This document shows positions 5,768 to 23,671 of a stretch of 24,000 bases of DNA, in pieces. Each line of letters starts with the position of its first letter. The stretch's first letter is position 1. The position numbers were made by a program, and so were the translations under genes. This DNA comes from Lancefieldella sp. Marseille-Q7238. GTDB lineage: Bacteria; Actinomycetota; Coriobacteriia; Coriobacteriales; Atopobiaceae. The notes beneath the pieces are model-generated. The model searched no databases, was not told the origin of the DNA, and saw nothing but the letters and a program-made list of their open reading frames with translations. Location: contig NZ_OX424407.1 of NCBI RefSeq assembly GCF_949152215.1, positions 414,530 to 438,529 of the forward strand, read 5' to 3'.

Positions 5768-5811
5768 AGAGCATGCTGTCCTCATAAATCCCCCCCTCTT
5801 GGAAGGAGCAG

Positions 5812-6810: not shown

Positions 6811-6841
6811 AGGCTTGACCAAGCCCCAGTGCCCAGACATC

Positions 6842-7054: not shown

Positions 7055-7151
7055 ACGGACTAAGTTTCTATAAGGTAACTCTTTGAAATTGATCGCTGCC
7101 TCTGGGCATATACTTAAACGGTTCTGTCATTCAAGCCGTAAAGGAGTATCT

Positions 7152-8510: not shown

Positions 8511-8560
8511 ACGCATATCGCAGCAACAGCGTTTTATGTAATTCACAGTAAGGAGACTGT

Positions 8561-10075
8561 ATGTCAGAAGCAACCATTGACCCCAAATGGGCCGCAAAAC
8601 AGCAAAAGGCATTTAGCAAAGATCGGGCTAATCGTATTGCACGTAACTCTGTCACGTCCATGGACGTTATGGCGGCGGCTCGTGACGTTACCGCCATGCG
8701 CAGCTACACCGATACGTACGGCATTTCCATTCCCAAGACCGGCGATATTACCAACCAGCGCCAAAGCGGCCGCTGCTGGATGTTTGCCGCCTTCAACGTC
8801 CTGCGTCAGGAAGCCATCAAATTTTTGGATGTGGATACGTTTGAGTTTTCGCAGGCATACGGTATGTTTTATGACAAGCTTGAAAAAGTCAATTCAACGC
8901 TTGAATACATCATCGAAACTACCAACAAACCTGCTGATGATCGCTTGGTGCAGACGCTTCTTACCGAGGGCATCGGAGACGGTGGCTATTATCCCTTTGC
9001 CATGAACTTAGTAAAGAAGTACGGCCTGGTTCCCAAGAGTGCCATGCCTGAGACTGCATGCTCTAAGAACTCAGACCAGATGGACGCACGCATCGACCGT
9101 CTTTTCCGCAAAGACGCCACACTGCTCCGCAAGGCCGCGGCCAACGGAGCAACCCTTGATGAGCTCCACGCAACCAAACAAAAAATGCTTGGCGATTTCT
9201 ACAAGATTCTTTCCGTCTGCCTTGGCGAACCGCCAATCAAGTTTGACTTTGAGCTCAAGGTTGGCAAGAATTGCAAGGCTGATGCCAAGAAGCTTTCCCC
9301 AATCGAGCCTTCCGAAAAAACAGACGATGCCGACTCCGCCAAAGAGAACCGCAAAAAGAATACTGCGAACAAAAAGGGCGAAACAGACGAGAAGGACGAG
9401 AAAGGCTCCCAGATTCTGCGCGACTTTGGTATTACGCCGCTCCAATTTGTCGAACGGTATTGCAACATCAACCCGGAGAACTTTGTTGCGTTGGTTTCCA
9501 TTCCCGGCACCCAGTTCCCCTACGGTAAGGTATATCGTGTCAAGCATGTTGATTCCGTTCTCGGTGGGCTGAAGACACGCTGCCTGAACGTTGAGCCTGA
9601 GGTTCTTGAGGCCGCAACCATTGCCTCTCTTAAAGCGGGACATCCGGTTGCCATGGCATGCGATGTCATGCAGGAATTCCCCCGTCGCATTCAGGATTTC
9701 AATTACGTCCTGTCTACCGATACCGTTGATTTCAACGGTCTTTTTGGCGTTGACTTTGACATGGATCGTACGTCCATGATTGACCACTATGAAACCTACC
9801 TCACGCACGCCATGACCTTCCAGGGCGTTGAGCTTGACAAAGACGGTAAGGCAAAGCAGTGGCGCATTGAGAACAGCTGGGGTAAGGATGCCGGTAAGGA
9901 TGGTTATCTCATCATGAGCGCCGATTGGTTCCGCCTCTACGGTGGAGAGTCCGACGTTCGCCGCGAGTACGTTTCCAAAGAGCTTCTTGAGCTTTGGGAC
10001 GACGAGTCAAAGGACGTTGAGGTGGAACTCTGGTCCGGTATGGGCCGCGCACTCGGCGGTCGCGGACGCAACTAG
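8561..10075 (+). CDS. pepC: Aminopeptidase C paralog 2 with a charged low-complexity insertion, 504 aa
   Basis: AAGGAG SD upstream of ATG 8561. The catalytic triad contexts NQRQSGRCWMFAAFN, YLTHAMTFQG and IENSWGKDAG are all present. A K/D/E-rich insertion of about 48 aa (CKADAKKLSPIEPSEKTDDADSAKENRKKNTANKKGETDEKDEKGS, nt ~9266-9409) is absent from paralog 1. The C-terminus reads ELWSGMGRALGGRGRN. Confidence 0.9.
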   Translation: MSEATIDPKWAAKQQKAFSKDRANRIARNSVTSMDVMAAARDVTAMRSYTDTYGISIPKTGDITNQRQSGRCWMFAAFNVLRQEAIKFLDVDTFEFSQAYGMFYDKLEKVNSTLEYIIETTNKPADDRLVQTLLTEGIGDGGYYPFAMNLVKKYGLVPKSAMPETACSKNSDQMDARIDRLFRKDATLLRKAAANGATLDELHATKQKMLGDFYKILSVCLGEPPIKFDFELKVGKNCKADAKKLSPIEPSEKTDDADSAKENRKKNTANKKGETDEKDEKGSQILRDFGITPLQFVERYCNINPENFVALVSIPGTQFPYGKVYRVKHVDSVLGGLKTRCLNVEPEVLEAATIASLKAGHPVAMACDVMQEFPRRIQDFNYVLSTDTVDFNGLFGVDFDMDRTSMIDHYETYLTHAMTFQGVELDKDGKAKQWRIENSWGKDAGKDGYLIMSADWFRLYGGESDVRREYVSKELLELWDDESKDVEVELWSGMGRALGGRGRN

Positions 10076-10100
10076 TACGCAGCCAAAGACGTACCCACAC

Positions 10101-10134
10101 AAGCGGACAGCTCACGGGGTTGTCCGCTTTTTGT
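10101..10134 (+). terminator. Intrinsic terminator after the pepC pair
   Basis: AAGCGGACA (10101-10109) / TGTCCGCTT (10121-10129) form the stem with an 11-nt loop, followed by TTTTTGT. The site is 26 nt after the pepC2 stop. It lies between convergent genes, so it may also serve the yigZ-like gene, although the minus strand has no T-run. Confidence 0.7.
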
Positions 10135-10144
10135 ACGCCTCGCC

Positions 10145-10786
10145 TTAGAACGTATCAAAGCGCGGTGCTTCCACCGTCGGCACAAGATCACCTGAGCCAA
10201 GTTCTCTCAGCGCATCCACAAACGCCGCCTCTTCTCCGCTTTTGAAATCCATTGCGAGAAGTACTTCCGCTCCAAAGTCGCTCCGTACTATCTTGCCCCC
10301 AGAATCAGAAACCATATGACATATCCGCTCGTAGCGCGTATACGGAACGCTCAGCACCACGCGGGTAACCAACCGCATTTCAACAAGTGAGTTGTTCTTC
10401 TCGGCATCCATAAGAGCAATCTGTGTCGCTGCGGTATATGCGCGGACCAAACCTCCCGGACCAAGCAACGTGCCGCCGAAGTAGCGCGTTACCACACAGC
10501 ATACGTCGGCAAGACCGGCGCCATGTAAAACCTCAAGGATTGGCATACCGGCGGTACGTGACGGTTCACCGTCGTCAGAGCAGCGCTCACGACCATCCGA
10601 AAGAACCCATGCCGGCACGTTATGGCGGGCGTCATGATAACGCGCGCGAACGCCGGCGATATAGTCGTTCGCCTCATCTTCGGACACAATATGAGTAAGT
10701 TGGGCAATAAAACGGCTCCGGCGATCCTCATAAATGCCGGTCGCTTCAAAGCCCGAAGCAAGCGTTTTGTATGACAAACGACTCAC
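10145..10786 (-). CDS. yigZ: YigZ / IMPACT-family (UPF0029) protein, about 213 aa
   Basis: Family motifs RRSRFIAQL, DDGEPSRTAGMPILEVL and VVTRYFGGTLLGPGGLVRAY are present. The track ORF begins at TTG 10816 and overlaps the upstream EIIA gene. I prefer GTG 10786 (MSRLSYKTL...), which matches the family N-terminal length. It sits 2 nt after the EIIA stop (TAA TA GTG), consistent with translational coupling. The start remains uncertain between 10816, 10786 and 10777. Confidence 0.8.
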   Translation of the reverse strand: MSRLSYKTLASGFEATGIYEDRRSRFIAQLTHIVSEDEANDYIAGVRARYHDARHNVPAWVLSDGRERCSDDGEPSRTAGMPILEVLHGAGLADVCCVVTRYFGGTLLGPGGLVRAYTAATQIALMDAEKNNSLVEMRLVTRVVLSVPYTRYERICHMVSDSGGKIVRSDFGAEVLLAMDFKSGEEAAFVDALRELGSGDLVPTVEAPRFDTF

Positions 10787-10788
10787 TA

Positions 10789-11337
10789 TTAGTTGGCAGC
10801 CTTCGCAGAGACGCAAAGGATGGGAGCGCCCGCTTCAATCTTTTCGGTCGGCTCTACGGGAGTAACGCCTGCAAGCTCAGAGGTATTGGTTATCGCAATG
10901 ATAATAACCTCAGGATGTTTCGCGGCGTGGATTTTTTTCAAATCAAAGCTCATGAGCGGTTGACCAGCCTTGACTTCCTCGTCCTGTTTGACAAAAGAGA
11001 TAAAGCCATCTCCGCGCATCTCAACAGTATCAACACCGACATGAATCAGAATCTCAAGGCCGTCTTTGGAGGTAAGGCCAAGCGCATGCATGGTTGGAGT
11101 GGTCGCACTGACAACGCCGCTTACTGGGGCGTAGATGACGCCTTCTTCGGGCCAGATACCATAACCCTCGCCCAAAACACCGCCGGAAAAAACAGGATCG
11201 GGAACATCGGCCAAGGCAACGCCACGACCCGTAGCAGGCGCGAAAACGGTCAGTTTTTTCTCATGTACGTGGATAGGCTCCGGCACGGCGTTCTTCTCGC
11301 CAGCAGACTGTTTCTTCAGAAAATCCAGTAGGCCCAT
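10789..11337 (-). CDS. crr: Stand-alone PTS EIIA, glucose family (Crr-like), 182 aa
   Basis: EIIA-Glc signature is present: TMHALGLTSKDGLEILIHVGVDTVEMRGDGF holds the two conserved His residues. I chose ATG 11337 as the start (MGLLDFLKK), preceded by GGGGGAG. An in-frame ATG at 11349 is an alternative. The track ORF extends to 11409. Confidence 0.88.
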   Translation of the reverse strand: MGLLDFLKKQSAGEKNAVPEPIHVHEKKLTVFAPATGRGVALADVPDPVFSGGVLGEGYGIWPEEGVIYAPVSGVVSATTPTMHALGLTSKDGLEILIHVGVDTVEMRGDGFISFVKQDEEVKAGQPLMSFDLKKIHAAKHPEVIIIAITNTSELAGVTPVEPTEKIEAGAPILCVSAKAAN

Positions 11338-11377
11338 AATCTCCCCCATATGGCTCGCTTGAATATCACTGCTTTTA

Positions 11378-11386
11378 ATAGTACCA
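11378..11386 (-). promoter_or_regulatory. Extended -10 element (TGGTACTAT) for the crr-yigZ operon
   Basis: The minus strand reads CACTGGTACTATTAAAAGC, which matches TGnTAnnnT. It lies about 40 nt upstream of the crr-like start. No convincing -35 is present. Confidence 0.35.
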
Positions 11387-11433
11387 GTGTCGAATGCGCC
11401 GCGTAGCAAACTTTTCTATTGGGCTCGATTTAG

Positions 11434-11442
11434 TGTTACAAT
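11434..11442 (+). promoter_or_regulatory. Extended -10 promoter (TGTTACAAT) of rnpB
   Basis: TGTTACAAT occupies 11434-11442. The predicted TSS 7-8 nt downstream coincides with the first base of the P1 helix of the RNase P RNA (~11451). Confidence 0.55.
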
Positions 11443-11450
11443 CGCCTCTG

Positions 11451-11815
11451 CAAAGCGGGCCAGACGACCGCGGGGCGACCATCCAGTCTTGGAGGGCTGC
11501 CATGAGGAAAGTCCGGGCTCCACGGGCAGGATGCTGGCTAACGGCCAGGCGGGGTGACCCGACGGAAAGTGCCGCAGAAAAGAAGACTCTCACCTGCGCG
11601 CAAGCGTAAAGAGAAAAGCTGAAACGGTAGTGTAAGAGACTACCAGCGCTCTGGCGACAGGGCGGCTTGGTAAACCCCCATCCGGAGCAAACGCAAATAG
11701 GAGCGCTATGGTGTAGCCCGCACTGCGCTCGGGTTGCGCGCTAGAGGATGTCGGCAACGGCATTCGTAGATAAATGGTCGTCCACGACAGAACCCGGCTT
11801 ACAGGCCCGCTTTGC
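11451..11815 (+). ncRNA. rnpB: RNase P RNA, bacterial type A
   Basis: The universally conserved GAGGAAAGTCCGGGCTCCA is at 11504-11522 and ACAGAACCCGGCTTA at 11787-11801 (the P4 strands). The terminal P1 helix pairs AAAGCGGGCC (11452-11461) with GGCCCGCTTT (11804-11813). Internal GGAAAGTGCCGCAGAAA and GGTAAACCCC motifs match E. coli-type (type A) architecture. Ends are accurate to about 5 nt. Confidence 0.93.
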
Positions 11816-11851
11816 TCTTTCCAAAAAATCGAGAAGATCCGTGGTTTTCGG

Positions 11852-13030: not shown

Positions 13031-13852
13031 ATGCCCTCCTACAAGCTCATCGCAAGCGATCTTGATGAAACGTTGCTTGACTCGAATCATTGTCTTCCTG
13101 AAAACGCGCGCAAGGCCATCCTTGCCGCGAGAAACAAAGGGGTCAAGTTTGTTCCCGCGTCAGGCAGAAACTACCAGAGCATTCAGATTACCTTGAAAGA
13201 GCTTGGTCTTTATGATCAACCGAATGAATACACCATCTCGTTTAACAGCGGTGTTATCACCGAAAACAAAGGCAACCGCGTCATCAGCATGGAAGGTATA
13301 TCGCGCGCATTCGCGAATGAGGTGCTGCAAAGAGCGCTTGCCCTCGGCAATCTCTGCGTTCATGTGTATACGGCTCACAAGATCTGGGCGTGGAACGTTC
13401 CTGAAATTGAGCGCCGCTATACTTGCAAGCTGCAAAAGATGGATGAAACCGATGAGCCAAACCTCGACTTTCTCGCCGACGAGCAAATCATTAAATGCCT
13501 GGTCATGAATACGAACGTAGCGTATCTTCACCAGCTTGCGCAAGAATGGCAGGATATCACGGACGACATAGACGTCAGCTTTTCTGCCAATCGCTATCTT
13601 GAATTTAATAAAAAGGGCGTCAATAAGGGTACGGGCCTCCTGCGCCTGGGAGAAATTCTCGACATTCCCGCAGAAGAGATTATCGCTATCGGAGATAACT
13701 ACAACGACCTGCCCATGGTTAAAACCGCAGGCCTCGGAGTACTCATGGCAAACGCCCCCAAAGAACTTAAATGTCAAGCGGACTATGTGACTACCCTCGA
13801 CAACAACGCCGGCGGCGTCGCTGAGGTTATCGAGAAATTCGTTCTATCCTAG
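13031..13852 (+). CDS. Cof-type HAD-IIB family hydrolase (sugar-phosphate phosphatase-like), 273 aa
   Basis: HAD motif I is in LIASDLDETLLD, motif II in FVPASGRNY and motif IV in IAIGDNYNDLPMVKTAG. The cap region is of Cof-type length. A TACAAT hexamer at 12989-12994 is a possible -10. Confidence 0.88.
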   Translation: MPSYKLIASDLDETLLDSNHCLPENARKAILAARNKGVKFVPASGRNYQSIQITLKELGLYDQPNEYTISFNSGVITENKGNRVISMEGISRAFANEVLQRALALGNLCVHVYTAHKIWAWNVPEIERRYTCKLQKMDETDEPNLDFLADEQIIKCLVMNTNVAYLHQLAQEWQDITDDIDVSFSANRYLEFNKKGVNKGTGLLRLGEILDIPAEEIIAIGDNYNDLPMVKTAGLGVLMANAPKELKCQADYVTTLDNNAGGVAEVIEKFVLS

Positions 13853-13864: not shown

Positions 13865-14479
13865 CTATATGTTCTCACTAGGGATACGAACTACCTTAGT
13901 TCCTCCAATGAAATCGTGCAGCGCGCGATGGCCTTTGGTAAACCACAACATAGCCACACTTATCAAACTGATTGCAATGCCCACATACATCCCATACGCT
14001 ACATTGATTCCCAAGACGAGCTGCAATACATTGCGAAGGACCGTGCTTGCCGTCACGAGAGCGCCTTCCACAACAATAATGCCTATAACCTGCCTCAGCA
14101 AAAGCTGAGACACTGATGCCTTTGAGCCATCCGCCGAAACGATTTTTACATGCAAAAAGTGCTTTCCTAGGGTCTGACCCTGCCACACCAACGCGGGCAA
14201 CACTACAAAGTACAAAACCGCGCAAAGCAGCGAAAAAAATCCTGCAACAAGCCCATAGGGAGCTTCAAAAGAGAGGATGTTTTGCATAGTCACATCACCA
14301 TAAAGTTTTTGCGCGCAAATGGCCATCGGAAGCGCTGTCACTAAGGCACCAATATACCAATCGATTAGATAGGCGATAAAACGTACGCCAAGATGGGCGT
14401 CAGGCAAAAGATTCGTCTTGCCAGGCGCTACGCAGCGCTCTTGAATATCTACATTAGCATTTTTGATATCGGTATCCAC
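13865..14479 (-). CDS. RDD-family integral membrane protein, 204 aa
   Basis: The RDD domain pattern is present (GVRFIAYLIDWYIG ... TLGKHFLHVKIV ... ALHDFIGGTKVV) with about 3-4 TM segments. The start is GTG 14479 with a good SD (AAGAGGATAAA GTG), 24 nt after the cutC-like stop. Confidence 0.75.
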   Translation of the reverse strand: MDTDIKNANVDIQERCVAPGKTNLLPDAHLGVRFIAYLIDWYIGALVTALPMAICAQKLYGDVTMQNILSFEAPYGLVAGFFSLLCAVLYFVVLPALVWQGQTLGKHFLHVKIVSADGSKASVSQLLLRQVIGIIVVEGALVTASTVLRNVLQLVLGINVAYGMYVGIAISLISVAMLWFTKGHRALHDFIGGTKVVRIPSENI

Positions 14480-14503
14480 TTTATCCTCTTACATGTTCTG
14501 TCG

Positions 14504-15355
14504 CTAGGCTGGCAGTTCCGAGACGTTTTTGACAAGCTGACAAACGCGTTCGAATGTAACTTTTTCATACCCCACAGTGTCCGCGCCGTCAAGGTAGGCA
14601 AAGCTTACGAAAGGCGATTGGGTGGTGGGATCCTCTACCTTACTCTTGCACGAAGCGTGCACCTGGCCCACGTTAGTCTCCCGTATAAACCGACTCACAT
14701 TATCCGGCGTAATGCCCGAACCAGGAAGAATCTCAATCTCAGCACCATACTCTCTTTGAAGACGTGCAATCAAAGACACGCCGGCAAGCGCGGTCGGACG
14801 CTGTCCTGAAGTGAGGACTCTGTCGGCATGAACCAGTTCGATAAGAGCCTCAATGGCATCAAAAGGTTGAGGTGTCATATCAAAAGCACGATGAAAGACC
14901 GCAACAGCACCCGCCTCATGGACAATATCGGCCAATACGCGCGAGCGAGCTAGATCTACCGTGGAAACAGGCGTCAGTATGCCAAAGGCAATCCCATCCG
15001 CACCTGCTGCAAGGAGCGCTTTCGTTTCTGCTTTCATCTGCTCAAATTCAGCGTCTGAATAGGCAAAACCGGCGGCACGCGGACGAACCATGCATATCGT
15101 TTCAAGTGAGGTATGTGCTTTGACAAGCCGCAGACTTGCGGCGCTTGGCGTCAGACCTCCCAAAGGCAGGGCAGAATTGAGTTCCACCCTCCGTGCGCCA
15201 CCCTTTTCCGCAGTCAGAGCATCGGCAAATCCTCCGCAGCAAATCTCAACAATGCGACCATGCATACCTTGAGCCTTTTGCACGTATCCTGTCTCCGACG
15301 TATCTTCAATCTTCGAAATATGCCTGCCCTTAGACACGTATTCTGTCTTTCGCAT
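14504..15355 (-). CDS. cutC: CutC-family protein (TIM-barrel 'copper homeostasis' family), up to 283 aa
   Basis: The CutC N-terminal signature IVEICCGGFADALTAEKGGARRVELNSALPLGGLTPS is present. ATG 15355 has AAGGAG about 13 nt upstream. The conserved core begins right after an internal ATG at 15265 (MHGRIVEICC), so the 30-aa N-terminal extension is uncertain. Confidence 0.8.
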   Translation of the reverse strand: MRKTEYVSKGRHISKIEDTSETGYVQKAQGMHGRIVEICCGGFADALTAEKGGARRVELNSALPLGGLTPSAASLRLVKAHTSLETICMVRPRAAGFAYSDAEFEQMKAETKALLAAGADGIAFGILTPVSTVDLARSRVLADIVHEAGAVAVFHRAFDMTPQPFDAIEALIELVHADRVLTSGQRPTALAGVSLIARLQREYGAEIEILPGSGITPDNVSRFIRETNVGQVHASCKSKVEDPTTQSPFVSFAYLDGADTVGYEKVTFERVCQLVKNVSELPA

Positions 15356-15387
15356 AGTTGAGGCGACTCCTTTTCACAGACTTTGTC

Positions 15388-16512
15388 TTACCGGGAAAGC
15401 TCGTAAAGACTTAAGGCGTAAATCTTCGCGTTTTTGATGATATCGCTGATGGACATCCACTCGTCTGGCAGATGTCCTATACCCTTTTGTCCGGGAAACG
15501 AAGGTCCAAACGGCACAATATGAGGCATCAGTTTGGCATAGGTCCCGCCTGTAGTAGTTACCGGCGTACCATCAAGCCCCGTCACACGCTCATATGTTGA
15601 TTGCAGTGTTTTTACAAGATGAGAAGAGCGGTCAAACCGCACAGGATCCCAGTTTAGCACTGTTTCTACACGTATTTCCGGAAGAGCCGCTTGTATACGA
15701 CCTAGCAGTTCAGCTGCAGTAATACCTGCGGGATAACTTATGGCCATTTCAACATAGCGCATTTGAGAATCAATACGGTAGTTTTTTGTCTGGAGTTTTC
15801 CAAATTCCTTATGCGCATATGCAATCCCAAAAGTCTCCCCTGTATCGCGAGTATTCAAGACACATGAGTTTAGGAGACCTGCAACATCTTCAGGCTTGCC
15901 ACTTCGCGGGAAAAGACGGACTACAAGCCGACCACGCTCGGCATATACCACCGGATACTTGCAGTCAGGCGTAAAGCCCATAACGGGTGGCTTCTCATGT
16001 GCAAGGTAATACTCAAGATCTCCAAAGCCGGTTTCTTCATTGCAACCGAATATGATTCGGATCTGGGTTTCTGGCTCAAATCCTAATTTTTTGAGAGCGG
16101 CTAGCGCGTAGAGACACGCGTAGATAGGACCTTTGTTGTCAAGAACACCTCTGCCGTATATGATGCCCCCTGCTACTTCCGCGCCAAACGGCTCATGTGT
16201 CCATCCAAAACCAGCAGGTACTACATCCAGATGACCTACCGCACAGATATATTCTTCCGATGAGCCAAAGGATGCGTATCCCATATAATCATCAACGTTT
16301 TTTGTTGTGAATCCAAGCTCAGAAGCATCAAACAACGCCTGCTTAAGAGCGTACTTTACTCCTATTCCAAAAGGAGCCTCAGGAGTCGGTTCGCCTTGCA
16401 CGCTGTTAATGCGCGCGATGTTTTTGATGGCCTCAATCATATATGGCGCAAAAGCGTCAACAGCCTTGAAGATAACTTCATCAGAGAATGTGTTTTTCGC
16501 AGAAACAGCCAT
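15388..16512 (-). CDS. M20-family metallopeptidase (PepV/Sapep-like dipeptidase, short form), 374 aa
   Basis: Metal-ligand and catalytic motifs GHLDVVPAG, GRGVLDNKGP and GCNEETG are present. There is no signal peptide. ATG 16512 lies 2 nt after the upstream gene's TAA (TAA AA ATG), which suggests translational coupling. Confidence 0.82.
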   Translation of the reverse strand: MAVSAKNTFSDEVIFKAVDAFAPYMIEAIKNIARINSVQGEPTPEAPFGIGVKYALKQALFDASELGFTTKNVDDYMGYASFGSSEEYICAVGHLDVVPAGFGWTHEPFGAEVAGGIIYGRGVLDNKGPIYACLYALAALKKLGFEPETQIRIIFGCNEETGFGDLEYYLAHEKPPVMGFTPDCKYPVVYAERGRLVVRLFPRSGKPEDVAGLLNSCVLNTRDTGETFGIAYAHKEFGKLQTKNYRIDSQMRYVEMAISYPAGITAAELLGRIQAALPEIRVETVLNWDPVRFDRSSHLVKTLQSTYERVTGLDGTPVTTTGGTYAKLMPHIVPFGPSFPGQKGIGHLPDEWMSISDIIKNAKIYALSLYELSR

Positions 16513-16514
16513 TT

Positions 16515-17483
16515 TTATATCAGCTCCACCGGCGCAGTACGCGCTGTCATGTATTCATCAAGCCACGCTTTCGTGGCCGGTTGATAGACGGTATGGGAGC
16601 CTTGGCGCTCTGCAACGTACACGACAGGTGCAAGTTCTTCTGTAGCCACCACAAAGGAAAATCCGTCTATATTGGTAGCCGCACCCCATGCTCCCTGAGC
16701 ATTCATAGCAACGATTGAAAGGTCTCCTGCAGAGCCACGCACGCGCCTGAGCTTCTCATCAAGAGCGGCAACTGCTTGCTCGCATGCTTCCTGAGGTCTC
16801 AGACCCTCTCCCATAAGCCGTACCACCTCATATGAGATGCAGCCTCTCATGCAGTCCTCACCCAGACCTGTTACTGTGGCACCACCACGACAGCTATCGG
16901 CATAAAGTCCCGCTCCACATATGGGAGAATCACCAATGCGTCCAGGACGTTTCATAAACAGTCCACTGGTAGAAGTTGCCGAGGCAATCGTGCCCTTAGC
17001 ATCCAGACACACCATACCAACAGTATCGTGACCCGCATAGGGTTTCAGATCCGTATGAATAGCTGTGCCGCCATCAGTTTTGAGACGGTTCATATAGCGA
17101 ATTCTCGCTCGGTCAGTAAGCATTGTTTTGCGCTCAAACCCCTGACGTGCCGCATACTTCTCGGCACCTTCTCCCATCAGCACGCAATTGGCAGTAGTTT
17201 GGGAAAGAGCGCGGGCAATAGATACGGGATTTGCAAAATCCTTGAGAGCCCCAACGGAACCGAAAGCAAGTGTATCGCCGTCCATAAAGCCAGCATCAAG
17301 CTCTACGTCTCCTTCAGCATTGGGAAGACCACCAAAACCTACGGATTTGTAATACGGGAAATCCTCCACTTTACGGACGGCGGCTTCAACGGCATCACCT
17401 GCCGACTCACCTTCTGCAAGCATACACGCCGCTCCGGAGACGCCTTCCAACGCCATACGCCATGTAGCAATAATTCCCCACAT
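16515..17483 (-). CDS. Ntn-hydrolase of the asparaginase-2 (T2) family, glycosylasparaginase (aspartylglucosaminidase)-like, 322 aa
   Basis: The autoprocessing/nucleophile site GHDTVGMVCLD has the HDT(I/V)GMV form seen in glycosylasparaginases, rather than the G-TVGAVA form of IaaA. The substrate-binding segment is TSTSGLFMKRPGRIGDSPICGAGLYAD. No signal peptide is present (MWGIIATWRM...). A GGAGGACGG SD precedes the start. Confidence 0.75.
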   Translation of the reverse strand: MWGIIATWRMALEGVSGAACMLAEGESAGDAVEAAVRKVEDFPYYKSVGFGGLPNAEGDVELDAGFMDGDTLAFGSVGALKDFANPVSIARALSQTTANCVLMGEGAEKYAARQGFERKTMLTDRARIRYMNRLKTDGGTAIHTDLKPYAGHDTVGMVCLDAKGTIASATSTSGLFMKRPGRIGDSPICGAGLYADSCRGGATVTGLGEDCMRGCISYEVVRLMGEGLRPQEACEQAVAALDEKLRRVRGSAGDLSIVAMNAQGAWGAATNIDGFSFVVATEELAPVVYVAERQGSHTVYQPATKAWLDEYMTARTAPVELI

Positions 17484-17608
17484 ACTATCCGTCCTCCGTT
17501 CTTTTAAATCTCTCTTTAGCCCGAAGTCACTGCTTTATCGTTTGCCGCTGCTACACGTTCGATTATTTTGTGTACATCTCTTTTTTGTATACGCCTCTTT
17601 GCGGTACG

Positions 17609-18136
17609 TTAGAAGCAATATTCCTTTTGAAGTTCGCTGATACGGACACTGTCACCGGAATGCAACGCATCAGCCAGATCACAAATCGCGCGCAATGAAC
17701 GGTCAAGGCCAATCCCGCCCTTCTTGGGAGTTTTCACCAACGACACGCGGTCTTTGTAGACAGCAATAGTCTCTTCGTTTTCCTCGGAGAGTGCTGCAAA
17801 TGCCTGAGATGTACCCGTCTCCTGTACGGCAAGAGCAACTTCAGCAGCCATACGACCAAAACCGAGGTAATTGAAAGCGGGACCGCATATGACTACGTCA
17901 GGCTTTATCTTCTCGACCATAGCGCAATACTTGCGAAGGCATTCCTGTCTGTTTTGAGCATAGTAGCCGTCGCCACAGTACAAACACGCCAGAACATGAC
18001 CGTCAATTGCCTTCAAATATGGCTCCATCATGATTGCGGGTCCAACGGCACCCTTCATGATTCCCAAAGGAACCATATGATCATCTTTAATGCCGGCGCC
18101 CGCCTGGATCTGATCGAATACCATCACTATCTTCAT
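17609..18136 (-). CDS. Short GrdB/PrdB-family (selenoprotein B N-terminal region)-like protein, 175 aa, no Sec
   Basis: Track ORF is 17609-18484. I trimmed the start to ATG 18136 (MKIVMVFDQIQAGAGIKDDHMVPLGIMKGAVGP...LYCGDGYY...KPDVVICGPAFNYLGFGRMAAEVA). From memory, this follows the N-terminal pattern of glycine/sarcosine/betaine reductase component B (...INQFFAGIGGEE...ICGD.YF...AGPAFNAGRYG). The ORF ends at TAA 17609-17611 after only about 175 aa. The discarded 116 upstream codons are R/L/W-rich and overlap the EIIC 3' end. Confidence 0.55.
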   Translation of the reverse strand: MKIVMVFDQIQAGAGIKDDHMVPLGIMKGAVGPAIMMEPYLKAIDGHVLACLYCGDGYYAQNRQECLRKYCAMVEKIKPDVVICGPAFNYLGFGRMAAEVALAVQETGTSQAFAALSEENEETIAVYKDRVSLVKTPKKGGIGLDRSLRAICDLADALHSGDSVRISELQKEYCF

Positions 18137-18209
18137 ATGCAAATCCCGCCTTCCAAACGCGTCTAACCGCGCATACTTGCATTCAAAATCAAAACGAAAA
18201 TCGTACGCA

Positions 18210-19589
18210 TCACAGGTCATCAAAGGAAAGGTTATCAAGGTCGATATCGTCAGCCTCATCAGTCTTGGCCATCTTGGCAACGCTCTCCCGCTCTTCCTTA
18301 AGATATTCGTTATCCATAGCCTTAATAAACGGTATGTAGATAAAGACGCCCATAACAAGAAGGAGCGCTTGCAGGAGCGCACCGGCCCAGTTGGTAGCCA
18401 GGAAACCGGAAATAATAACCGGCATCGTCCAGGGAATATTGATACCTGAACATACCGGAACCAGTCCGAGCGACATACAAGCATAAGAAATTACGATATT
18501 GAGCGTCGGAACCAGCATAAAGGGAATTAACATCGCGGGGTTCAGCACAAGGGGAAGGCCGAAGACAATTGGTTCGTTGATGCCAAAAATACCGGGCACG
18601 AGAGCCAACTTTGAAAGTTTCTTTATGCGCTCAGACTTGCAAACCATAAACATGGCAATAACAAGAGAAAGCGTTGAGCCACAGCCGCCAAAAGTTGCAA
18701 AGAGATCTTGGAACTGTTGACAGATAATGTGAGGGGATCCAGCCCCAGTGGTAAAGAAAGCTACGTTTTCAGCTGAAAGCGTCTGAAGAATAGGATTGAA
18801 TACGGCGCCTACCACAGAACCGCCGTTGATGCCAAAGAACCAGAAAAGGTGCAGGAAGATATAGGCAACTACCATAGCCCCTAGCGTATCACCAAGATTG
18901 AGAAGCGGCGTCTGCAAAAACTTGTAAACGATGGTAAACGCATCGGTTTGCGCAAGACCGAGCACGAGGTTGATGCTAAAGAAAACAATCATAACAACGC
19001 AGGCAGGAATAAGTGCTGAGAAAGACTTGACGACAGTGGGAGGTACTCCGGGAGGCATCTTGATAGTCCAGCCCCTGTCTTCAACCCATTTATAAATGTG
19101 AACAGATACAAAAGCACAGATAATGCCGATAAAGATACCTTTAGCGCCGACCCATCCGGTAGAGATGCCTGGAATAGTCACAGCAGTCTTCTCGCCATTG
19201 ATAAGCGCAGATCCGTTCACCCAGTACGGCATAAGAAGGAACCAGGACATGACCGCAGTCGCCGCGGCAAAAATCTTATCCGTCTTCATCTCACGCGCAA
19301 ATGAATAAGCAATGCCGATCACAGCAAAGATTGCCATAATTGAAAAGGTTGCCGACGAGGGTTTAGACACAAAGGCTTCGAGCGTTTCACCAGTACTTTG
19401 ATTGATGACAACGGAGGAAAGCCACTCCGTCCAAGCCGGAATAGGAAAGTTGGCAATGAGTAGGAAAATCGAGCCAGCGATAAGCAAGGGCGTCAGAACA
19501 AGAAAGCCGTCGCGAAGCGCAACAAGATACTTGTTCTTACCAATAGCTTCCGCAAGCGGCAACAGCATTTTTTCAAGCCGTTCCATCAT
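18210..19589 (-). CDS. PTS EIIC, lactose/cellobiose (chitobiose) family, 459 aa
   Basis: The N-terminus MMERLEKMLLPLAEAIGKNKYLVALRDGF matches the CelB/ChbC-type motif. About 10 TM segments follow. An unusual ~35-aa acidic C-terminal tail is present (EERESVAKMAKTDEADDIDLDNLSFDDL). A GGAGAAAG SD lies upstream of ATG 19589. Confidence 0.9.
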   Translation of the reverse strand: MMERLEKMLLPLAEAIGKNKYLVALRDGFLVLTPLLIAGSIFLLIANFPIPAWTEWLSSVVINQSTGETLEAFVSKPSSATFSIMAIFAVIGIAYSFAREMKTDKIFAAATAVMSWFLLMPYWVNGSALINGEKTAVTIPGISTGWVGAKGIFIGIICAFVSVHIYKWVEDRGWTIKMPPGVPPTVVKSFSALIPACVVMIVFFSINLVLGLAQTDAFTIVYKFLQTPLLNLGDTLGAMVVAYIFLHLFWFFGINGGSVVGAVFNPILQTLSAENVAFFTTGAGSPHIICQQFQDLFATFGGCGSTLSLVIAMFMVCKSERIKKLSKLALVPGIFGINEPIVFGLPLVLNPAMLIPFMLVPTLNIVISYACMSLGLVPVCSGINIPWTMPVIISGFLATNWAGALLQALLLVMGVFIYIPFIKAMDNEYLKEERESVAKMAKTDEADDIDLDNLSFDDL

Positions 19590-19632
19590 GGTGCTTTCTC
19601 CAATCCACGCAAAGATCCGATACTGTTTTGTC

Positions 19633-19971
19633 TTACTGTGCTGATTTGGCCTGTTTGATAAGGAGAATGGCCTTTTTAAGGACCTTCTCTCCGTCCATCA
19701 AACCATATGATTCTTTATCAATAAGGCTGATGGGTATTCCCGTCGGGCCGAACCTTTTAACTGTTTCGCTATACATATGTGAGACTTGGGGGCCCAGAAG
19801 AATGCAGTCAGGACGTTCGGCCTCAATGATTTGCCCGATAGAGTCAACCGGCTTCGCCTCAACGGTAATCGGCAACTTATGATTATCAGCTACCTGCTGC
19901 ATTGCATATGCCAACATACTTGTAGACATTCCAGCACTGCAAAAAAGGAAAATCTTTTTTGTGTTTCCCAT
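19633..19971 (-). CDS. PTS EIIB, lactose/cellobiose family, 112 aa
   Basis: The active-site Cys is in KKIFLFCSAGMSTSML (ChbB/CelA-type). The track ORF starts at GTG 19980. I prefer ATG 19971 because AAAGGAGGTGA lies immediately upstream with proper spacing. Confidence 0.9.
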   Translation of the reverse strand: MGNTKKIFLFCSAGMSTSMLAYAMQQVADNHKLPITVEAKPVDSIGQIIEAERPDCILLGPQVSHMYSETVKRFGPTGIPISLIDKESYGLMDGEKVLKKAILLIKQAKSAQ

Positions 19972-19998
19972 ATTCCTCACCTCCTTTCACCACTATCC

Positions 19999-20027
19999 AT
20001 CATTCCTAGTTAGTTGCATTTTTTCAA
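19999..20027 (-). promoter_or_regulatory. Candidate sigma-70-type promoter of the PTS/glycosylasparaginase operon
   Basis: The minus strand reads TTGAAA (20027-20022), a 17-nt spacer, then AATGAT (20004-19999). The site is about 30 nt upstream of the EIIB start and downstream of the ahpC terminator. Confidence 0.3.
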
Positions 20028-20092
20028 GGTGGAACCTCCGTCAACGGTAGAAAAAATCCGTCCTTATGCAGAAGCCCACAAAATAGCCGGAC

Positions 20093-20130
20093 GATAAAGA
20101 AAACGACAGGTCCTTAAGGGGACCTGTCGT
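20093..20130 (-). terminator. Intrinsic terminator of ahpC
   Basis: The minus strand reads ACGACAGGTCC-ccttaa-GGACCTGTCGT followed by TTTTCTTTAT. The stems are at 20103-20113 and 20120-20130, 65 nt past the ahpC stop. Confidence 0.8.
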
Positions 20131-20195
20131 TCGCTGGGAGCGTGCACTGTATTTACTTCAGAGCGCCAGCATGCATTACATGCTTTCTTGTCTTC

Positions 20196-20759
20196 TTACA
20201 GCTGACCGACAAGGTCAAGACCCGGCTTCAAAGTTTCGGCGCCGGGGTGCCACTTGGCAGGACATACCTGATCGCCATATTGCGCGACAAATTGAGCAGC
20301 CTGAAGCAGGCGCAAAAGCTCATCGGCATTGCGACCGATGCCACCGGCGGTGACCATCTCAACTTGAATGACGCCTTCAGGATCAACGATAAATGCGCCA
20401 CGCTCAGCCTGACCGGCTTCCTCTATCAAAACGCCAAAGTTTCTTGCAAGCACCTGCGCGGGATCGGCGAGCATCGGATAGGTTACCTTAGAGATACGCT
20501 CGGACTCATCATGCCATGCCTTATGCACGAATTCAGTGTCGCAGGAAACGGAATAAATCTCCGCGTCGATTTCTTGGAATTTGCTGTAGTTTTCTGCAAG
20601 ATCCTCAAGCTCGGTCGGACAGACAAACGTAAAGTCAGCCGGATAGAAGAAGAAAAGGCTCCACTTCCCCAGCGTGTCTGCTTTTGAGACAGTCTTGATT
20701 TCATTGTTTTGGAAAGCCTGCACCGTAAAATCTTTGATTTCGTTGCCAATCTGGGACAT
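20196..20759 (-). CDS. ahpC: Alkyl hydroperoxide reductase subunit C (typical 2-Cys peroxiredoxin), 187 aa
   Basis: The peroxidatic Cys is in FFYPADFTFVCPTE and the resolving Cys in VCPAKW. A GAAGGAGGA SD lies upstream of ATG 20759. No ahpF follows, and the terminator comes directly downstream. Confidence 0.93.
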   Translation of the reverse strand: MSQIGNEIKDFTVQAFQNNEIKTVSKADTLGKWSLFFFYPADFTFVCPTELEDLAENYSKFQEIDAEIYSVSCDTEFVHKAWHDESERISKVTYPMLADPAQVLARNFGVLIEEAGQAERGAFIVDPEGVIQVEMVTAGGIGRNADELLRLLQAAQFVAQYGDQVCPAKWHPGAETLKPGLDLVGQL

Positions 20760-20922: not shown

Positions 20923-20957
20923 GCGCTAGTACATAAATGCATAAAAAGTACTAGCGC
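20923..20957. other. 10-bp perfect palindromic hairpin overlapping the methyltransferase stop codon, in the ahpC upstream region
   Basis: GCGCTAGTAC (20923-20932) / GTACTAGCGC (20948-20957) flank a 15-nt AT-rich loop, ATAAATGCATAAAAA. The right arm contains the TAG stop (20951-20953) of the minus-strand methyltransferase gene. No T-run follows on the minus strand. Confidence 0.4.
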
Positions 20958-21751
20958 ACACGTTGGAACACAAGGTATCGGTTAAGATTTTCATCTTTCC
21001 CATCTGCGCTAAACTGCGCGCATATGCGCACGTGAGAGCCAAGCTGAGCAATAAGGTCATCAAGCTCGTCTTGTGTAAAGTGATGGCAGTATCGCCATGC
21101 ATGAGCTTCGTCCTGCCAGCCTAGCAGGTAGTCGTGTTCCTCTAAAACGTCTGCGTCCATCTGGAGCTGCTGCAAAGCCTGGGCTGTTGTTGTATTGGCT
21201 TTAGCGGCTAATTTGACACTGTTCATAAATTGCCAAAATGAGATACAGAGATATCCTCCCGGTTTGGTTTTGTCTAGCAGAGTACGCACAAGCTGCACCC
21301 GATTTTGAGCTCCCGGCACATGGTGCATAAAGCCAAAGGCAACTACTAAGTCAGAGGCCGGCATCTTCAGCTGAGACGCCAACGTATTGTCCAACAGGCT
21401 GTTCACTACATCCATTTTGACAAAGACAATCCGATCATCCGCCGCTCCGCAGTGAACCAGCGGCTCGCAATTATCTATCGCAACATACGCCGCGGGTTTG
21501 ACGCCCGATTTCATCACAAATCGAGCAAAGCGTAAGTTACCGCATCCCACATCAAGCACACGGGGCTTCTCGGCAGCCATAAAGCGAGGCATGGCATCCA
21601 AACACTGCTGCCAGCCTTGCCAAGGCGCCTGACGCGTGGCAGAGAAGCTCTGAGCCTGCTGCGCATAGAACTCAGAGGTAATGTGGCTGAGCAGACGCGC
21701 GGTCTGCTTGCTGTCAGATGAGGTACCGGCAATGTTCATATGAGTATTCAT
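20951..21751 (-). CDS. Class I SAM-dependent methyltransferase, Trm9/ALKBH8-MT-like, 266 aa
   Basis: SAM motif I is in PRVLDVGCGNLRF. The upstream segment EFYAQQAQSFSATRQAPWQGW resembles the Trm9-type '...FS.TR...W' lead-in. The later motifs VAFGFMHHVP, GGYLCISFW and WRYCHHFTQDELDDL resemble the Trm9 pattern (IHH..., ...W, RYYH.F..EL). The comparison to Trm9 is from memory and has not been searched. Confidence 0.6.
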   Translation of the reverse strand: MNTHMNIAGTSSDSKQTARLLSHITSEFYAQQAQSFSATRQAPWQGWQQCLDAMPRFMAAEKPRVLDVGCGNLRFARFVMKSGVKPAAYVAIDNCEPLVHCGAADDRIVFVKMDVVNSLLDNTLASQLKMPASDLVVAFGFMHHVPGAQNRVQLVRTLLDKTKPGGYLCISFWQFMNSVKLAAKANTTTAQALQQLQMDADVLEEHDYLLGWQDEAHAWRYCHHFTQDELDDLIAQLGSHVRICAQFSADGKDENLNRYLVFQRVR

Positions 21752-21757
21752 ACGTGG

Positions 21758-21814
21758 ATTTTATCTCACTATCGTTACCCCGACCGACGTGAAGTCAGGC
21801 TGACTGCGTATAAT
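21758..21814. promoter_or_regulatory. Back-to-back -10 boxes placed 6 nt from each divergent ATG; leaderless-mRNA architecture
   Basis: On the plus strand, TATAAT (21809-21814) is followed by 6 nt (GCGAGT) and then ATG 21821 of the Elp3-like gene. On the minus strand, TAAAAT (21763-21758) is followed by 6 nt (CCACGT) and then ATG 21751 of the methyltransferase gene. Neither ATG has an SD. Confidence 0.45.
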
Positions 21815-21820
21815 GCGAGT

Positions 21821-23671
21821 ATGAACGAACTCATATGGGACATACTAGAGAAACTTCGCGCGAGCTCTCAGAGCGCTCTTGACGCCCATCAGCTTGAGGT
21901 GTTGCTCCGCTCACACAGCGGTACTGTCAACAACATCAGCGGCATAGATAGCCCAAAACAGATTCCCAAACGTGCTGTCCTGCCCTATTTTTTACAGGTC
22001 AAGAACAAAAATGCTGAGCTGTGGCGCTCTTGGAACGTTACGCCCGAGCTGGAAGCGCGCTTTATACACTCGGTGCGCATGAAACCGCGGCGCACTGCCT
22101 CGGGTGTAGCCACCATTACGGTCATCACACGACCACATACCTGCTCAAGCAATTGCCTGTACTGTCCCTGTGATCTACGCATGCCCAAAAGCTATATTGC
22201 CAACGAGCCGGCCTGTCAGCGTGCGGAGCAAGCATTCTTTGACCCTTACGTACAAGTTGCCGCTCGTCTGCAAGCACTGCATCAGATGGGCCATTCCACA
22301 GACAAGATCGAGCTTATTGTACTGGGTGGCACCTGGAGTGATTATCCTGCGGACTATCAATACTGGTTCATAAGCGAGTTATTCCGCGCACTCAATGATT
22401 GGCCCCGTTCACCTCAGCAGATCGAGAAGCGCCTGCATTGGTATCGCTCTTTTGGATTGCAAAATACAGAAGAAGCGCTGTCTTCATTTGTTGCTCGTCA
22501 GCAAGCGGCCGTCAACGCGCATGCCGTAACGTATAATCAGGCCTTCCACAGGCTGTACGATACCAGCCAAGCACACCAAACTGCATGGTCTCATATGCGT
22601 GCTACTTTCGAAGATCTTCTTAAACAGCAACGTGCTAATGAGACTGCAGCCTGCCGCGTAGTGGGTCTGGTCATAGAAACGCGCCCTGATACGATCATAC
22701 CCGCAAACCTGCGCATGTTCAGACAGCTTGGCTGCACTAAAATCCAAATCGGCATCCAAAGTACCCGGCAGGAAATTCTTGATGCCAACTTACGCCAAAT
22801 GACTGTCGCGCAGATCAAACGCGCATTCTCACTTATTCGCCTCTATGGATTCAAGATCCACTCGCACCTTATGGTCAATCTGTTAGGTGCAACACCCGAG
22901 GCAGATAAGCAAGACTTTATCAATTTTGTAACTGACCCCGGCTATCTGCCCGATGAGATCAAACTCTATCCTTGCGCATTGGTAGACGGTACGCAACTGG
23001 TCAAGAAGTACCGGAAGGGACTCTGGCAGCCCTACTCCAAAAACGAGCTGGTAGATGTGCTGGTACACGACGTATTAGCGGCACCGACATACGTACGTAT
23101 TTCTCGTATGATCCGCGATATTAGTGCCACCGATATTTTGGTAGGCAACAAACACACAAACCTGCGCCAAATGGTCGAACAAGAGCTCAATGATGGGGAA
23201 AAGGCTTCCTGTGTACAAGAGATCCGCTTCAGGGAGATCAACCAGCAACAGGTAAGTGCAGCTGAGCTCAGCTTACAGGACTACACCTATACTACTGCCG
23301 TAAGTGATGAGCACTTTTTGCAGTGGGTAACGAGAGATAACAAAATCGCAGGTTTTTGTCGGCTCTCACTCCCACACTGGGATGAGCTGGCGGCAGGCAC
23401 ATGCGACGTACATGCCGATGAATTGATAGTCCAGCCGGATCAGGCGATGATCCGAGAACTGCATATTTATGGCCAGGCTTTGTCTCTGGGCTCAGAAGGC
23501 ATATCCGCGCAACATCAGGGTCTTGGCCAAAAGCTACTCGTACAGGCGGGTAAGATTGCTGCAGACGAAGGTTATACTGCCCTCAATGTGATCAGCTCCA
23601 TTGGCACACGCGCTTACTATCGTGCGCAGGGCTTTAAGGATGCCGACTTATATCAGCAAAAAGAGCTGTAA
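21821..23671 (+). CDS. elp3: Bacterial Elp3 homolog: radical SAM plus GNAT tRNA U34 (carboxymethyl) modification enzyme-like, 616 aa
   Basis: The radical SAM cluster motif is in RPHTCSSNCLYCPCD (CX3CX2C). It is followed by an Elp3-like block, SYIANEPACQRAEQAFFDPYVQVAARLQALHQMGHSTDKIELIVLGGTW. The C-terminal GNAT region reads IRELHIYGQALSLG...QHQGLGQKLLVQAGKIAADEGYTALNVISSIGTRAYYRAQGF. The track ORF starts at ATG 21740 and would overlap the divergent gene by 12 nt. I prefer ATG 21821 (MNELIWDILEKL) because of the TATAAT box 6 nt upstream. Confidence 0.85.
   Translation: MNELIWDILEKLRASSQSALDAHQLEVLLRSHSGTVNNISGIDSPKQIPKRAVLPYFLQVKNKNAELWRSWNVTPELEARFIHSVRMKPRRTASGVATITVITRPHTCSSNCLYCPCDLRMPKSYIANEPACQRAEQAFFDPYVQVAARLQALHQMGHSTDKIELIVLGGTWSDYPADYQYWFISELFRALNDWPRSPQQIEKRLHWYRSFGLQNTEEALSSFVARQQAAVNAHAVTYNQAFHRLYDTSQAHQTAWSHMRATFEDLLKQQRANETAACRVVGLVIETRPDTIIPANLRMFRQLGCTKIQIGIQSTRQEILDANLRQMTVAQIKRAFSLIRLYGFKIHSHLMVNLLGATPEADKQDFINFVTDPGYLPDEIKLYPCALVDGTQLVKKYRKGLWQPYSKNELVDVLVHDVLAAPTYVRISRMIRDISATDILVGNKHTNLRQMVEQELNDGEKASCVQEIRFREINQQQVSAAELSLQDYTYTTAVSDEHFLQWVTRDNKIAGFCRLSLPHWDELAAGTCDVHADELIVQPDQAMIRELHIYGQALSLGSEGISAQHQGLGQKLLVQAGKIAADEGYTALNVISSIGTRAYYRAQGFKDADLYQQKEL

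Follow-up and report, generated by a model that had tools for sequence, protein, structure and literature searches.

Asparagine-linked N-acetylglucosamine (GlcNAc-Asn) is used by Enterococcus faecalis through the ega locus, which comprises a GntR regulator and a dipeptidase followed by the glycosylasparaginase EgaG and the EIIB and EIIC components of a lactose/cellobiose-family (Lac/Cel) phosphotransferase system (PTS), together with a putative oxidoreductase related to GrdB, whose gene is a pseudogene in OG1RF (PMC11549559). GlcNAc-Asn transport in E. faecalis needs the EIIA component CelA1, which is encoded at another locus (PMC11976118). In Lacticaseibacillus casei, AsnA2 is a cytoplasmic, self-processing glycosylasparaginase with a Thr154 nucleophile that is genetically linked to PepV, tolerates a 6-substituent on GlcNAc and has an activity of ~20 μmol/min/mg (PMC6960285). 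In L. paracasei, the GH170 enzyme ChbE splits the chitobiose-6-phosphate that is delivered by a cellobiose-type PTS (PMC12791066). Here we describe a seven-gene operon from Lancefieldella sp. (Atopobiaceae) that couples a Lac/Cel PTS to a predicted cytoplasmic glycosylasparaginase and an M20 peptidase. The operon lies in a stretch of 24,000 nt, referred to below as the window, and coordinates are window positions.

The operon consists of seven consecutive minus-strand genes running from 19971 to 13865, each of which has a clear family match in Pfam and NCBIfam scans of the open reading frame (ORF) list. In 5' to 3' order these are:

19633–19971, minus strand: PTS EIIB, lactose/cellobiose family, 112 aa (PF02302, E 4.6e-14)
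18210–19589, minus strand: PTS EIIC, lactose/cellobiose/chitobiose family, 459 aa (PF02378, E 1e-63)
17609–18136, minus strand: GrdB-related selenium-free small protein, 175 aa (NF041545 GrdB_like_no_Se, 224 bits, cut-off 175)
16515–17483, minus strand: predicted cytoplasmic glycosylasparaginase, N4-(beta-N-acetylglucosaminyl)-L-asparaginase, 322 aa (PF01112, E 3.5e-65)
15388–16512, minus strand: M20 Sapep/PepV-like metallopeptidase with a shortened lid domain, 374 aa (PF01546; TIGR01887)
14504–15355, minus strand: CutC-family TIM-barrel protein, 283 aa, or 253 aa from a start at 15265 (PF03932, E 8e-47)
13865–14479, minus strand: RDD-family integral membrane protein, 204 aa (PF06271, E 3.5e-20)

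The gaps in transcription order are 43, 73, 125, 2, 32 and 24 nt, with the 32-nt gap between the M20 and CutC genes growing to 122 nt if the alternative CutC start at 15265 is used. An initial annotation made from the sequence alone had described seven co-directional genes separated by 2–125 nt. All of the ORFs are indeed on the minus strand, the recomputed gaps agree, and the 2-nt stop-start junction that it reported is real and lies between the hydrolase (16515) and M20 (16512) genes. All seven genes are where that annotation had put them, with the seventh, encoding the RDD protein, having gone unnamed in its title. We conclude that the block is a genuine seven-gene operon.

Judged by its sequence, the hydrolase is of the glycosylasparaginase type and not of the isoaspartyl-peptidase type. 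Its best match in the Protein Data Bank (PDB) is the Elizabethkingia glycosylasparaginase 1p4k (E 1.6e-57, 198 bits, 40% identity), as against ~135 bits for the isoaspartyl peptidases and plant-type asparaginases found there, and its sole NCBIfam match, the beta-aspartyl-peptidase model NF007589, is reached with 139 bits where the cut-off is 567. Membership of the EcAIII-type isoaspartyl peptidase/L-asparaginase group was considered and rejected on these scores. The HDTVGMV nucleophile context of aspartylglucosaminidases that had been noted earlier is borne out, since the motif GHDTVGM occupies residues 151–157 in a protein whose best relative is a glycosylasparaginase. Residues H152-D153-T154, R182, D185, T205-G206 and W8 align with H150-D151-T152, R180, D183, T203-G204 and W11 of the Elizabethkingia enzyme. 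We take the HDT to be the autoprocessing site with T154 as the Thr nucleophile, the Thr-Gly pair to be the oxyanion region, R182 and D185 to be the pair that binds the alpha-carboxylate and alpha-amino groups of Asn, and W8 to be the equivalent of W11, the Trp that presumably stacks on GlcNAc. A 100%-identical protein in Lancefieldella sp. Marseille-Q7238 carries the name N4-(beta-N-acetylglucosaminyl)-L-asparaginase, and the identity to the ega-type enzyme of E. raffinosus is 53%.

In the alignment with the mature Elizabethkingia enzyme, residue 4 of the hydrolase falls opposite residue 7. The protein thus begins right at the conserved core, which leaves no space for a signal peptide, in agreement with the initial annotation, and the enzyme is predicted to be cytoplasmic. 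It shares with the Elizabethkingia glycosylasparaginase and human AGA the N-terminal nucleophile (Ntn) fold, the HDT autoprocessing site and the Asp-binding Arg/Asp pair; those enzymes are periplasmic or lysosomal, unlike the window enzyme with its missing signal peptide. Two further features set it apart from the Elizabethkingia enzyme. An Arg (Arg9) stands beside Trp8 in 11 of 11 aligned PTS-linked enzymes where the Elizabethkingia enzyme has Asn, and a conserved C-terminal extension of ~40 residues (282–322 in the window enzyme) is present in all 11 and absent from the Elizabethkingia enzyme. This hints that Arg9 may help the enzyme to accommodate or recognize a 6-phosphate on the sugar.

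The family matches of its subunits assign the transporter to the Lac/Cel PTS. EIIC scores 417 bits against TIGR00410 (lacE subfamily, cut-off 236) and the same 417 bits against the cellobiose model TIGR00359 (cut-off 434); together with PF02378, the TIGR00410 match agrees with the cellobiose/chitobiose class to which the transporter had first been assigned. EIIB starts with the ATG at 19971, which is preceded 7 nt upstream by an AGGAGG Shine-Dalgarno sequence, and its N-terminal FLFCSAG motif holds the phospho-cysteine position. EIIB is 96% identical to its counterpart in Lancefieldella rimae and 46% identical to the ega-type EIIB of E. raffinosus, while EIIC shows 56% identity to the E. raffinosus ega-type locus and 63–75% to the cassettes of Firmicutes described below. 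A separate beta-glucoside-type block at 2626–6810 contains a GH1 6-phospho-beta-glucosidase (2626–4239, minus strand), a Glc-family PTS EIIBC (4185–5675, minus strand) and a divergent AraC/cupin regulator (5812–6810, plus strand). The GH1 gene belongs to this Glc-family PTS block and not to the operon.

The M20 protein passes the Sapep-subfamily model TIGR01887 (320 bits, cut-off 208), in keeping with the earlier call of a dipeptidase-like enzyme, and falls below the cut-offs of the PepV models (318 bits, cut-off 435; 236 bits, cut-off 632). It aligns to residues 34–193 and 382–465 of PepV (1lfw), and the segment between these two parts is 90 aa long as compared with 188 in PepV, so that the lid is ~98 residues shorter than that of the two-domain PepV (full length ~466 aa). 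H94, D125, E159-E160, D183 and H347, which we take to be the metal and catalytic positions of PepV, are conserved. The short form, with a median length of 371 aa, is kept in 76 of the loci analyzed below, whereas the E. raffinosus dipeptidase aligns to the window protein in two pieces around a segment of ~75 residues that is missing here. Tandem PepC-like C1 peptidase genes (PF03051) are encoded 4–6 kb from the operon at 7083–8510 and 8561–10075, both on the plus strand (E 3.5e-169 and 3e-121), and a Latilactobacillus curvatus glycosylasparaginase locus is likewise flanked by two C1-family peptidases. These two peptidases may trim glycopeptides from the N-terminus, or the arrangement may be a coincidence.

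We propose, at a probability of about 75%, that the operon imports and breaks down a remnant of the host N-glycoprotein core, chiefly GlcNAc-beta-Asn. GlcNAc-Asn is the stub that remains after degradation of host N-glycoproteins, and Lancefieldella is an oral actinobacterium that lives in glycoprotein-rich saliva. We favor GlcNAc-Asn as the substrate because it is what the E. faecalis ega locus uses. By analogy with EgaBC and CelA1 of E. faecalis, EIIC and EIIB would import GlcNAc-Asn and phosphorylate it at O6, with EI, HPr and a Lac/Cel-type EIIA, all encoded elsewhere, supplying the phosphate. The expected product, 6-phospho-GlcNAc-Asn, follows from PTS chemistry and is reportedly the one given by Combret et al. 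(2023). Glycosylasparaginases require free alpha-amino and alpha-carboxyl groups on Asn, and for this reason we suggest that the short-lid M20 enzyme would remove the neighboring residue from Asn(GlcNAc) dipeptides. The Ntn hydrolase, after autoprocessing at Thr154, would then cleave the beta-aspartyl-glucosylamine bond of the presumably phosphorylated substrate to yield L-aspartate and 1-amino-GlcNAc-6-phosphate. The glycosylamine would lose ammonia to give GlcNAc-6-phosphate, which could enter glycolysis by way of NagA and NagB.

The comparison with the described systems shows what is shared and what is not. The ega locus likewise has a cytoplasmic glycosylasparaginase adjoining Lac/Cel EIIB and EIIC, a GrdB-related protein and an M20 dipeptidase, and likewise obtains its EIIA in trans, just as the window operon has none. 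We used the megaplasmid loci of E. raffinosus and L. curvatus as stand-ins for the E. faecalis ega sequences. The former reads GntR, Sapep, glycosylasparaginase, EIIB, EIIC, EIIA and shares 46–56% protein identity with the window, and the latter reads glycosylasparaginase, GntR, GrdB family, EIIC, Sapep. In ega, two units (regulator-peptidase and glycosylasparaginase-EIIB-EIIC and so on) are found under the GntR repressor EgaR of the LSA1692 subfamily. In contrast, the window operon has no regulator and forms one co-directional block in the order EIIB, EIIC, GrdB-like, glycosylasparaginase, M20, CutC, RDD. Its M20 protein has half a lid domain (374 aa as compared with ~433 aa for the ega type), CutC and RDD are extra, and the host is an actinobacterium (Coriobacteriia). 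The ega locus is reportedly the subject of Combret et al. (2023/2024, Res Microbiol 175:104169), whose title ties this use of GlcNAc-Asn to E. faecalis infection.

The alf-2 system of L. casei/paracasei (Becerra et al. 2020) also serves catabolism of N-glycan-core glycoamino acids, and Thr154 of AsnA2 is at the same position as in the window enzyme. Uptake there is by the major facilitator superfamily (MFS) permease AlfH instead of a PTS, and the sugar is phosphorylated after cleavage, whereas we propose phosphorylation during transport. The alf-2 system further includes the fucosidase AlfC, the kinase SugK and the aspartate decarboxylase AsdA, and it lacks the CutC, GrdB-like and RDD genes, all three of which are present in the window. 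The L. paracasei chb system relies on a PTS of this family, and small accessory proteins accompany its EIIC (DUF3284 there; GrdB-like and RDD in the window), but it carries a GH170 gene, in place of which the window has the asparaginase/M20/CutC module. PTS-dependent GlcNAc-Asn catabolism itself is not novel, as work on ega has already demonstrated it in E. faecalis. What is new is its setting: a host from another phylum, the lack of a regulator and an EIIA in the locus, an M20 enzyme with a short lid, added CutC and RDD genes, and a conserved cassette.

The conservation of this cassette was assessed with a pattern scan derived from a GrdB-like alignment, which found 186 relatives with one genome per species. 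We analyzed the best 80 loci (80 species), scoring their content by tblastn with the window proteins and by clustering of all ORFs; several of the missing-gene cases are contig ends. EIIC and the glycosylasparaginase were each found in 78 of the 80 loci, the M20 protein in its short form in 77, EIIB in 76, EIIA in 72, CutC in 70, a PRD/Mga/EIIA2-type activator in 64, a YitT/DUF2179 membrane protein in 58, RDD in 55 and a MupG/GH170-like gene in 37. The order EIIB, EIIC, GrdB-like, glycosylasparaginase, M20, CutC is nearly invariant, being shared by L. rimae and about 70 Firmicutes species. Carriers include Lachnospiraceae, Clostridium, Butyricicoccus, Peptacetobacter, Erysipelotrichaceae (Catenibacterium, Faecalibacillus, Thomasclavelia) and one Ligilactobacillus. 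The coupling of hydrolase and transporter is thus conserved. The initial annotation had suggested looking for this linkage in related genomes, where it is present, and had offered a merely fortuitous link between hydrolase and PTS as an alternative, which we reject because the coupling is kept in 78 of the 80 loci.

L. rimae has exactly the arrangement and flanks of the window, from ahpC to the HAD gene, and among the best 80 of the 186 loci no actinobacterium other than Lancefieldella was found. Firmicutes cassettes add a PRD-type activator, EIIA, YitT and often a GH170/MupG-like 6-phospho-glycosidase; their PRD/Mga-type activator stands in place of the GntR regulator of ega and is absent from the window too. 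A homologue search found no PRD regulator, YitT or GH170 gene in the window or the L. rimae locus, the interval from ahpC to the HAD gene contains no regulator gene, no Pfam-scanned ORF of the window contains a GntR domain, and no MupG/GH170-like 6-phospho-glycosidase was matched in the window. The Lancefieldella copy is therefore a reduced Firmicutes cassette without its own EIIA, PRD activator, YitT and GH170. The Lancefieldella proteins are 45–75% identical to their Firmicutes counterparts, and the cassette was probably acquired by horizontal transfer. A megablast search of the operon against plasmids gave no match, and the G+C content is 0.49 in the operon as compared with 0.54 in the left part of the window. 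Identity to L. rimae across 13865–20759 is uneven, at 93–96% for AhpC, EIIB and EIIC, 85% for HAD and 68–82% for the GrdB-like protein, hydrolase, M20, CutC and RDD. Either recombination with a breakpoint close to the EIIC/GrdB-like junction or differing selective constraints may explain this.

Taken together, the gene families, the enzyme type, the synteny and the match to E. faecalis ega bear out the initial annotation in its proposal of a PTS, a cytoplasmic glycosylasparaginase and an M20 enzyme for GlcNAc-Asn. The GlcNAc-Asn hypothesis is well supported in this respect, with the locus itself lacking EIIA, a regulator and a 6-phospho-glycosidase. Several points weigh against it. A homologue search detected no EIIA in the 24-kb window or the L. 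rimae locus, and EI, HPr, NagA and NagB are likewise not encoded within the window; transport competence therefore hangs on genes elsewhere. Since the organism runs the other PTS at 2626–6810, EI and HPr should exist elsewhere in its genome. EIIC is a little closer to the transporters of asparaginase-less Streptococcus loci (64%) than to the ega type (56%), and so could also, or mainly, take chitobiose (PMC12791066). In L. casei, PepV is reported to be dispensable for use of 6'FN-Asn. Finally, CutC is not found in ega-type loci, in those of L. curvatus and L. casei or in a few complete cassettes, and we therefore regard it as helpful to the pathway and not as essential.

Among the alternatives, the one that survives best is that the PTS mainly serves N,N'-diacetylchitobiose or another beta-GlcNAc disaccharide and that the asparaginase, M20 and CutC genes form a separate, co-transcribed nitrogen or peptide module. 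The EIIC score near the cut-off of the cellobiose model TIGR00359 fits this possibility. So do the loci of two streptococci, Streptococcus sp. oral taxon 056 and S. panodentis, which share the RDD/EIIA/EIIB/EIIC/GrdB-like core and have after it just a MupG/GH170-like gene; the Streptococcus EIIC that adjoins the GH170-like gene is 64% identical to that of the window. The activity of ChbE on PTS-derived chitobiose-6-phosphate in L. paracasei (PMC12791066) and the GH170-like gene in 37 of 80 cassettes point in the same direction. Yet the window and L. rimae operons contain no 6-phospho-glycosidase, for which reason the locus could not split chitobiose-6-phosphate, and the PTS is coupled to a glycosylasparaginase in fixed order in 78 of the 80 loci. 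Moreover, the E. faecalis locus that is credited with GlcNAc-Asn use itself encodes EIIB and EIIC, and both uses are compatible with each other in the Firmicutes cassettes. We consider a mainly chitobiose-directed role rather unlikely, and GlcNAc-Asn remains our preferred substrate.

The two Streptococcus loci, whose blocks lie at ~5400–11800 of their sequences, have the order PRD activator, (RDD), EIIA, EIIB, EIIC, GrdB-like, MupG/GH170-like, and contain no asparaginase, M20 or CutC gene. Both loci probably serve chitobiose use and share their transporter module with the cassette. Because the GrdB-like and RDD genes occur with the PTS in these asparaginase-less loci, we count both as part of the transporter module; this module can work for a chitobiose branch or for a GlcNAc-Asn branch. 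In the fetched loci, the GrdB-like gene always comes directly after EIIC. RDD, a protein with several hydrophobic segments, is found upstream of EIIA at the 5' end in Firmicutes and at the 3' end in Lancefieldella. It is likely, if speculative, that the GrdB-like and RDD proteins are transporter or PTS accessory factors that assist EIIC. Precedents for small proteins that particular Lac/Cel EIICs require are CelGHI in E. faecalis and the DUF3284 protein ChbD (PMC12791066).

The GrdB-like protein is not the selenoprotein B of a reductase. The mechanical ORF list stretches its ORF to 18484, overlapping EIIC; homologues are ~173 aa long, and for that reason we place the real start at the ATG at 18136. 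It matches only the first ~165 positions (2–165 of 347) of GrdB models that are 347–435 positions long, scores 57 bits against the GrdB model where the cut-off is 602, and shows no in-frame UGA read-through region. We rejected an assignment as a GrdB selenoprotein B/reductase subunit (~430 aa), given that the selenocysteine-containing C-terminal half is absent from this 175-aa protein. Five cysteines are invariant, namely Cys51 and Cys54 in a CxxC motif, Cys84, Cys152 and Cys174. The AlphaFold model (pLDDT 95.5) has a flavodoxin-like alpha/beta fold, for which Foldseek returned no significant PDB neighbor (best E 7.7e-3, generic CheY/B12-binding-like alpha/beta folds), and a sequence search of the PDB gave no match.

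In contrast to the transporter module, CutC follows the asparaginase branch, being present in 70 of the 78 loci with an asparaginase and in neither of the two that lack the asparaginase/M20 pair. Its best PDB match is human CUTC (3iwp, E 8e-39), and its structural model (pLDDT 94.6) superimposes on 3iwp with a TM score of ~0.9. The next structural neighbors are the phosphate-binding barrels MJ1099, phosphoribosylanthranilate isomerase, KDPG aldolase and ribulose-phosphate epimerase, so the modeled fold is compatible with a phosphosugar substrate. Such barrels work on phosphosugars and related small metabolites. The ATG at 15355 adds a 30-residue N-terminus that lies outside the Pfam model and the Firmicutes homologues (median 249 aa), and public gene calls for Lancefieldella follow the longer reading, with 283 and 276 aa. 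The family owes its name to a copper phenotype in E. coli, which is due to the small RNA MicL encoded inside the gene (PMC4102768), and a search for papers that connect CutC with asparaginase, PTS or dipeptidase genes brought up none of relevance. The closest CutC proteins outside the cassette (57% identity) are those of two Olsenella-like Atopobiaceae (8001–8756 and 8001–8783 of their loci), in which cutC closes a co-directional block with an RpiR/MurR-like regulator, PTS EIIBCA and two esterases. CutC is thereby linked a second time, and independently, to PTS sugar catabolism.

Speculatively, CutC probably acts on a phosphorylated product of the asparaginase/M20 branch. A more specific version holds that CutC is a dedicated enzyme of the Asn branch, converting 1-amino-GlcNAc-6-phosphate to GlcNAc-6-phosphate and ammonia or carrying out another phosphosugar step, and that the GrdB-like and RDD proteins are obligatory accessory subunits of EIIC. 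CutC would then speed the breakdown of 1-amino-GlcNAc-6-phosphate at neutral cytoplasmic pH. We regard this version as tentative and, on balance, unlikely.

The five invariant cysteines of the GrdB-like protein, with their CxxC motif, would also fit a reading in which GlcNAc-Asn is a side substrate and the operon is really directed at some bigger or otherwise distinct glycoconjugate, such as chitobiosyl-Asn, a short peptide carrying Asn(GlcNAc) or some other conjugate with an N-linked amino sugar, whose breakdown needs redox or C-N chemistry by the GrdB-like protein and CutC. CutC and the short-lid M20 enzyme are specific to the cassette and absent from ega-type loci, and Firmicutes cassettes add the GH170-like gene and YitT, which would fit such a substrate. 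Against this, no cofactor-binding or catalytic signature was found, the model of the GrdB-like protein lacks a significant structural neighbor, this protein also occurs in asparaginase-less loci, and the minimal chemistry of GlcNAc-Asn requires neither the GrdB-like protein nor CutC. A larger conjugate as the true substrate is thus quite improbable.

Salvage of beta-aspartyl/isoaspartyl peptides or asparagine by an EcAIII-type hydrolase with a general M20 dipeptidase and an incidental PTS is highly improbable: PF01112 spans both activities, the beta-aspartyl-peptidase model is the only NCBIfam match of the hydrolase and two PepC-like aminopeptidase genes lie 4–6 kb away, but that model is missed by a wide score (139 bits against 567), solved glycosylasparaginases score ~60 bits above isoaspartyl peptidases, the presumed sugar-stacking Trp (W11 of the Elizabethkingia enzyme) is kept as W8, and the PTS linkage is kept across about 78 species.

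The boundaries of the proposed GlcNAc-Asn operon are marked by the following features:

20196–20759: ahpC ORF, upstream neighbor (TIGR03137, 285 bits)
20101–20132, minus strand: intrinsic terminator of ahpC, the upper boundary of the operon, with a 13-bp G+C-rich stem followed by a T-run
19999–20027, minus strand: promoter-like TTGAAA-17 nt-AATGAT upstream of EIIB, 9 of 12 consensus matches
13031–13852, plus strand: Cof-type HAD hydrolase gene, convergent at the far end

The initial annotation had bounded the operon by a promoter-like element after the ahpC terminator and by a convergent gene. The terminator hairpin and the convergent Cof-type HAD gene are both confirmed. The promoter-like element is present, and its role as the operon promoter is only plausible because such sites are no commoner in the region than in shuffled sequences (5 found, 8.6 expected). 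An Rfam scan found no regulatory RNA in the operon or upstream of it, the sole match in the window being a full-length bacterial class A RNase P RNA at 11452–11817 on the plus strand (RF00010, 281 bits). Unrelated to the operon are a class I S-adenosylmethionine (SAM) methyltransferase gene (20951–21751, minus strand) and, divergent from it with a 12-nt overlap, a gene for an ELP3-like radical-SAM/GNAT protein (21740–23671, plus strand).

Through PTS-dependent use of GlcNAc-Asn, host-associated bacteria gain access to the last remnant of N-glycoproteins. The present analysis extends the reach of this pathway from Enterococcus to a widespread and conserved cassette carried by gut Clostridia and Erysipelotrichia and by some Lactobacillales, as well as, in reduced form, by the oral Lancefieldella. 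The cassette also gives a testable biochemical context for CutC, the selenium-free GrdB-like protein and RDD. Of these, CutC is the most valuable lead as it has a human homologue: if the proposed role in the Asn branch is true, it would be the first biochemical function for a family conserved from bacteria to humans.

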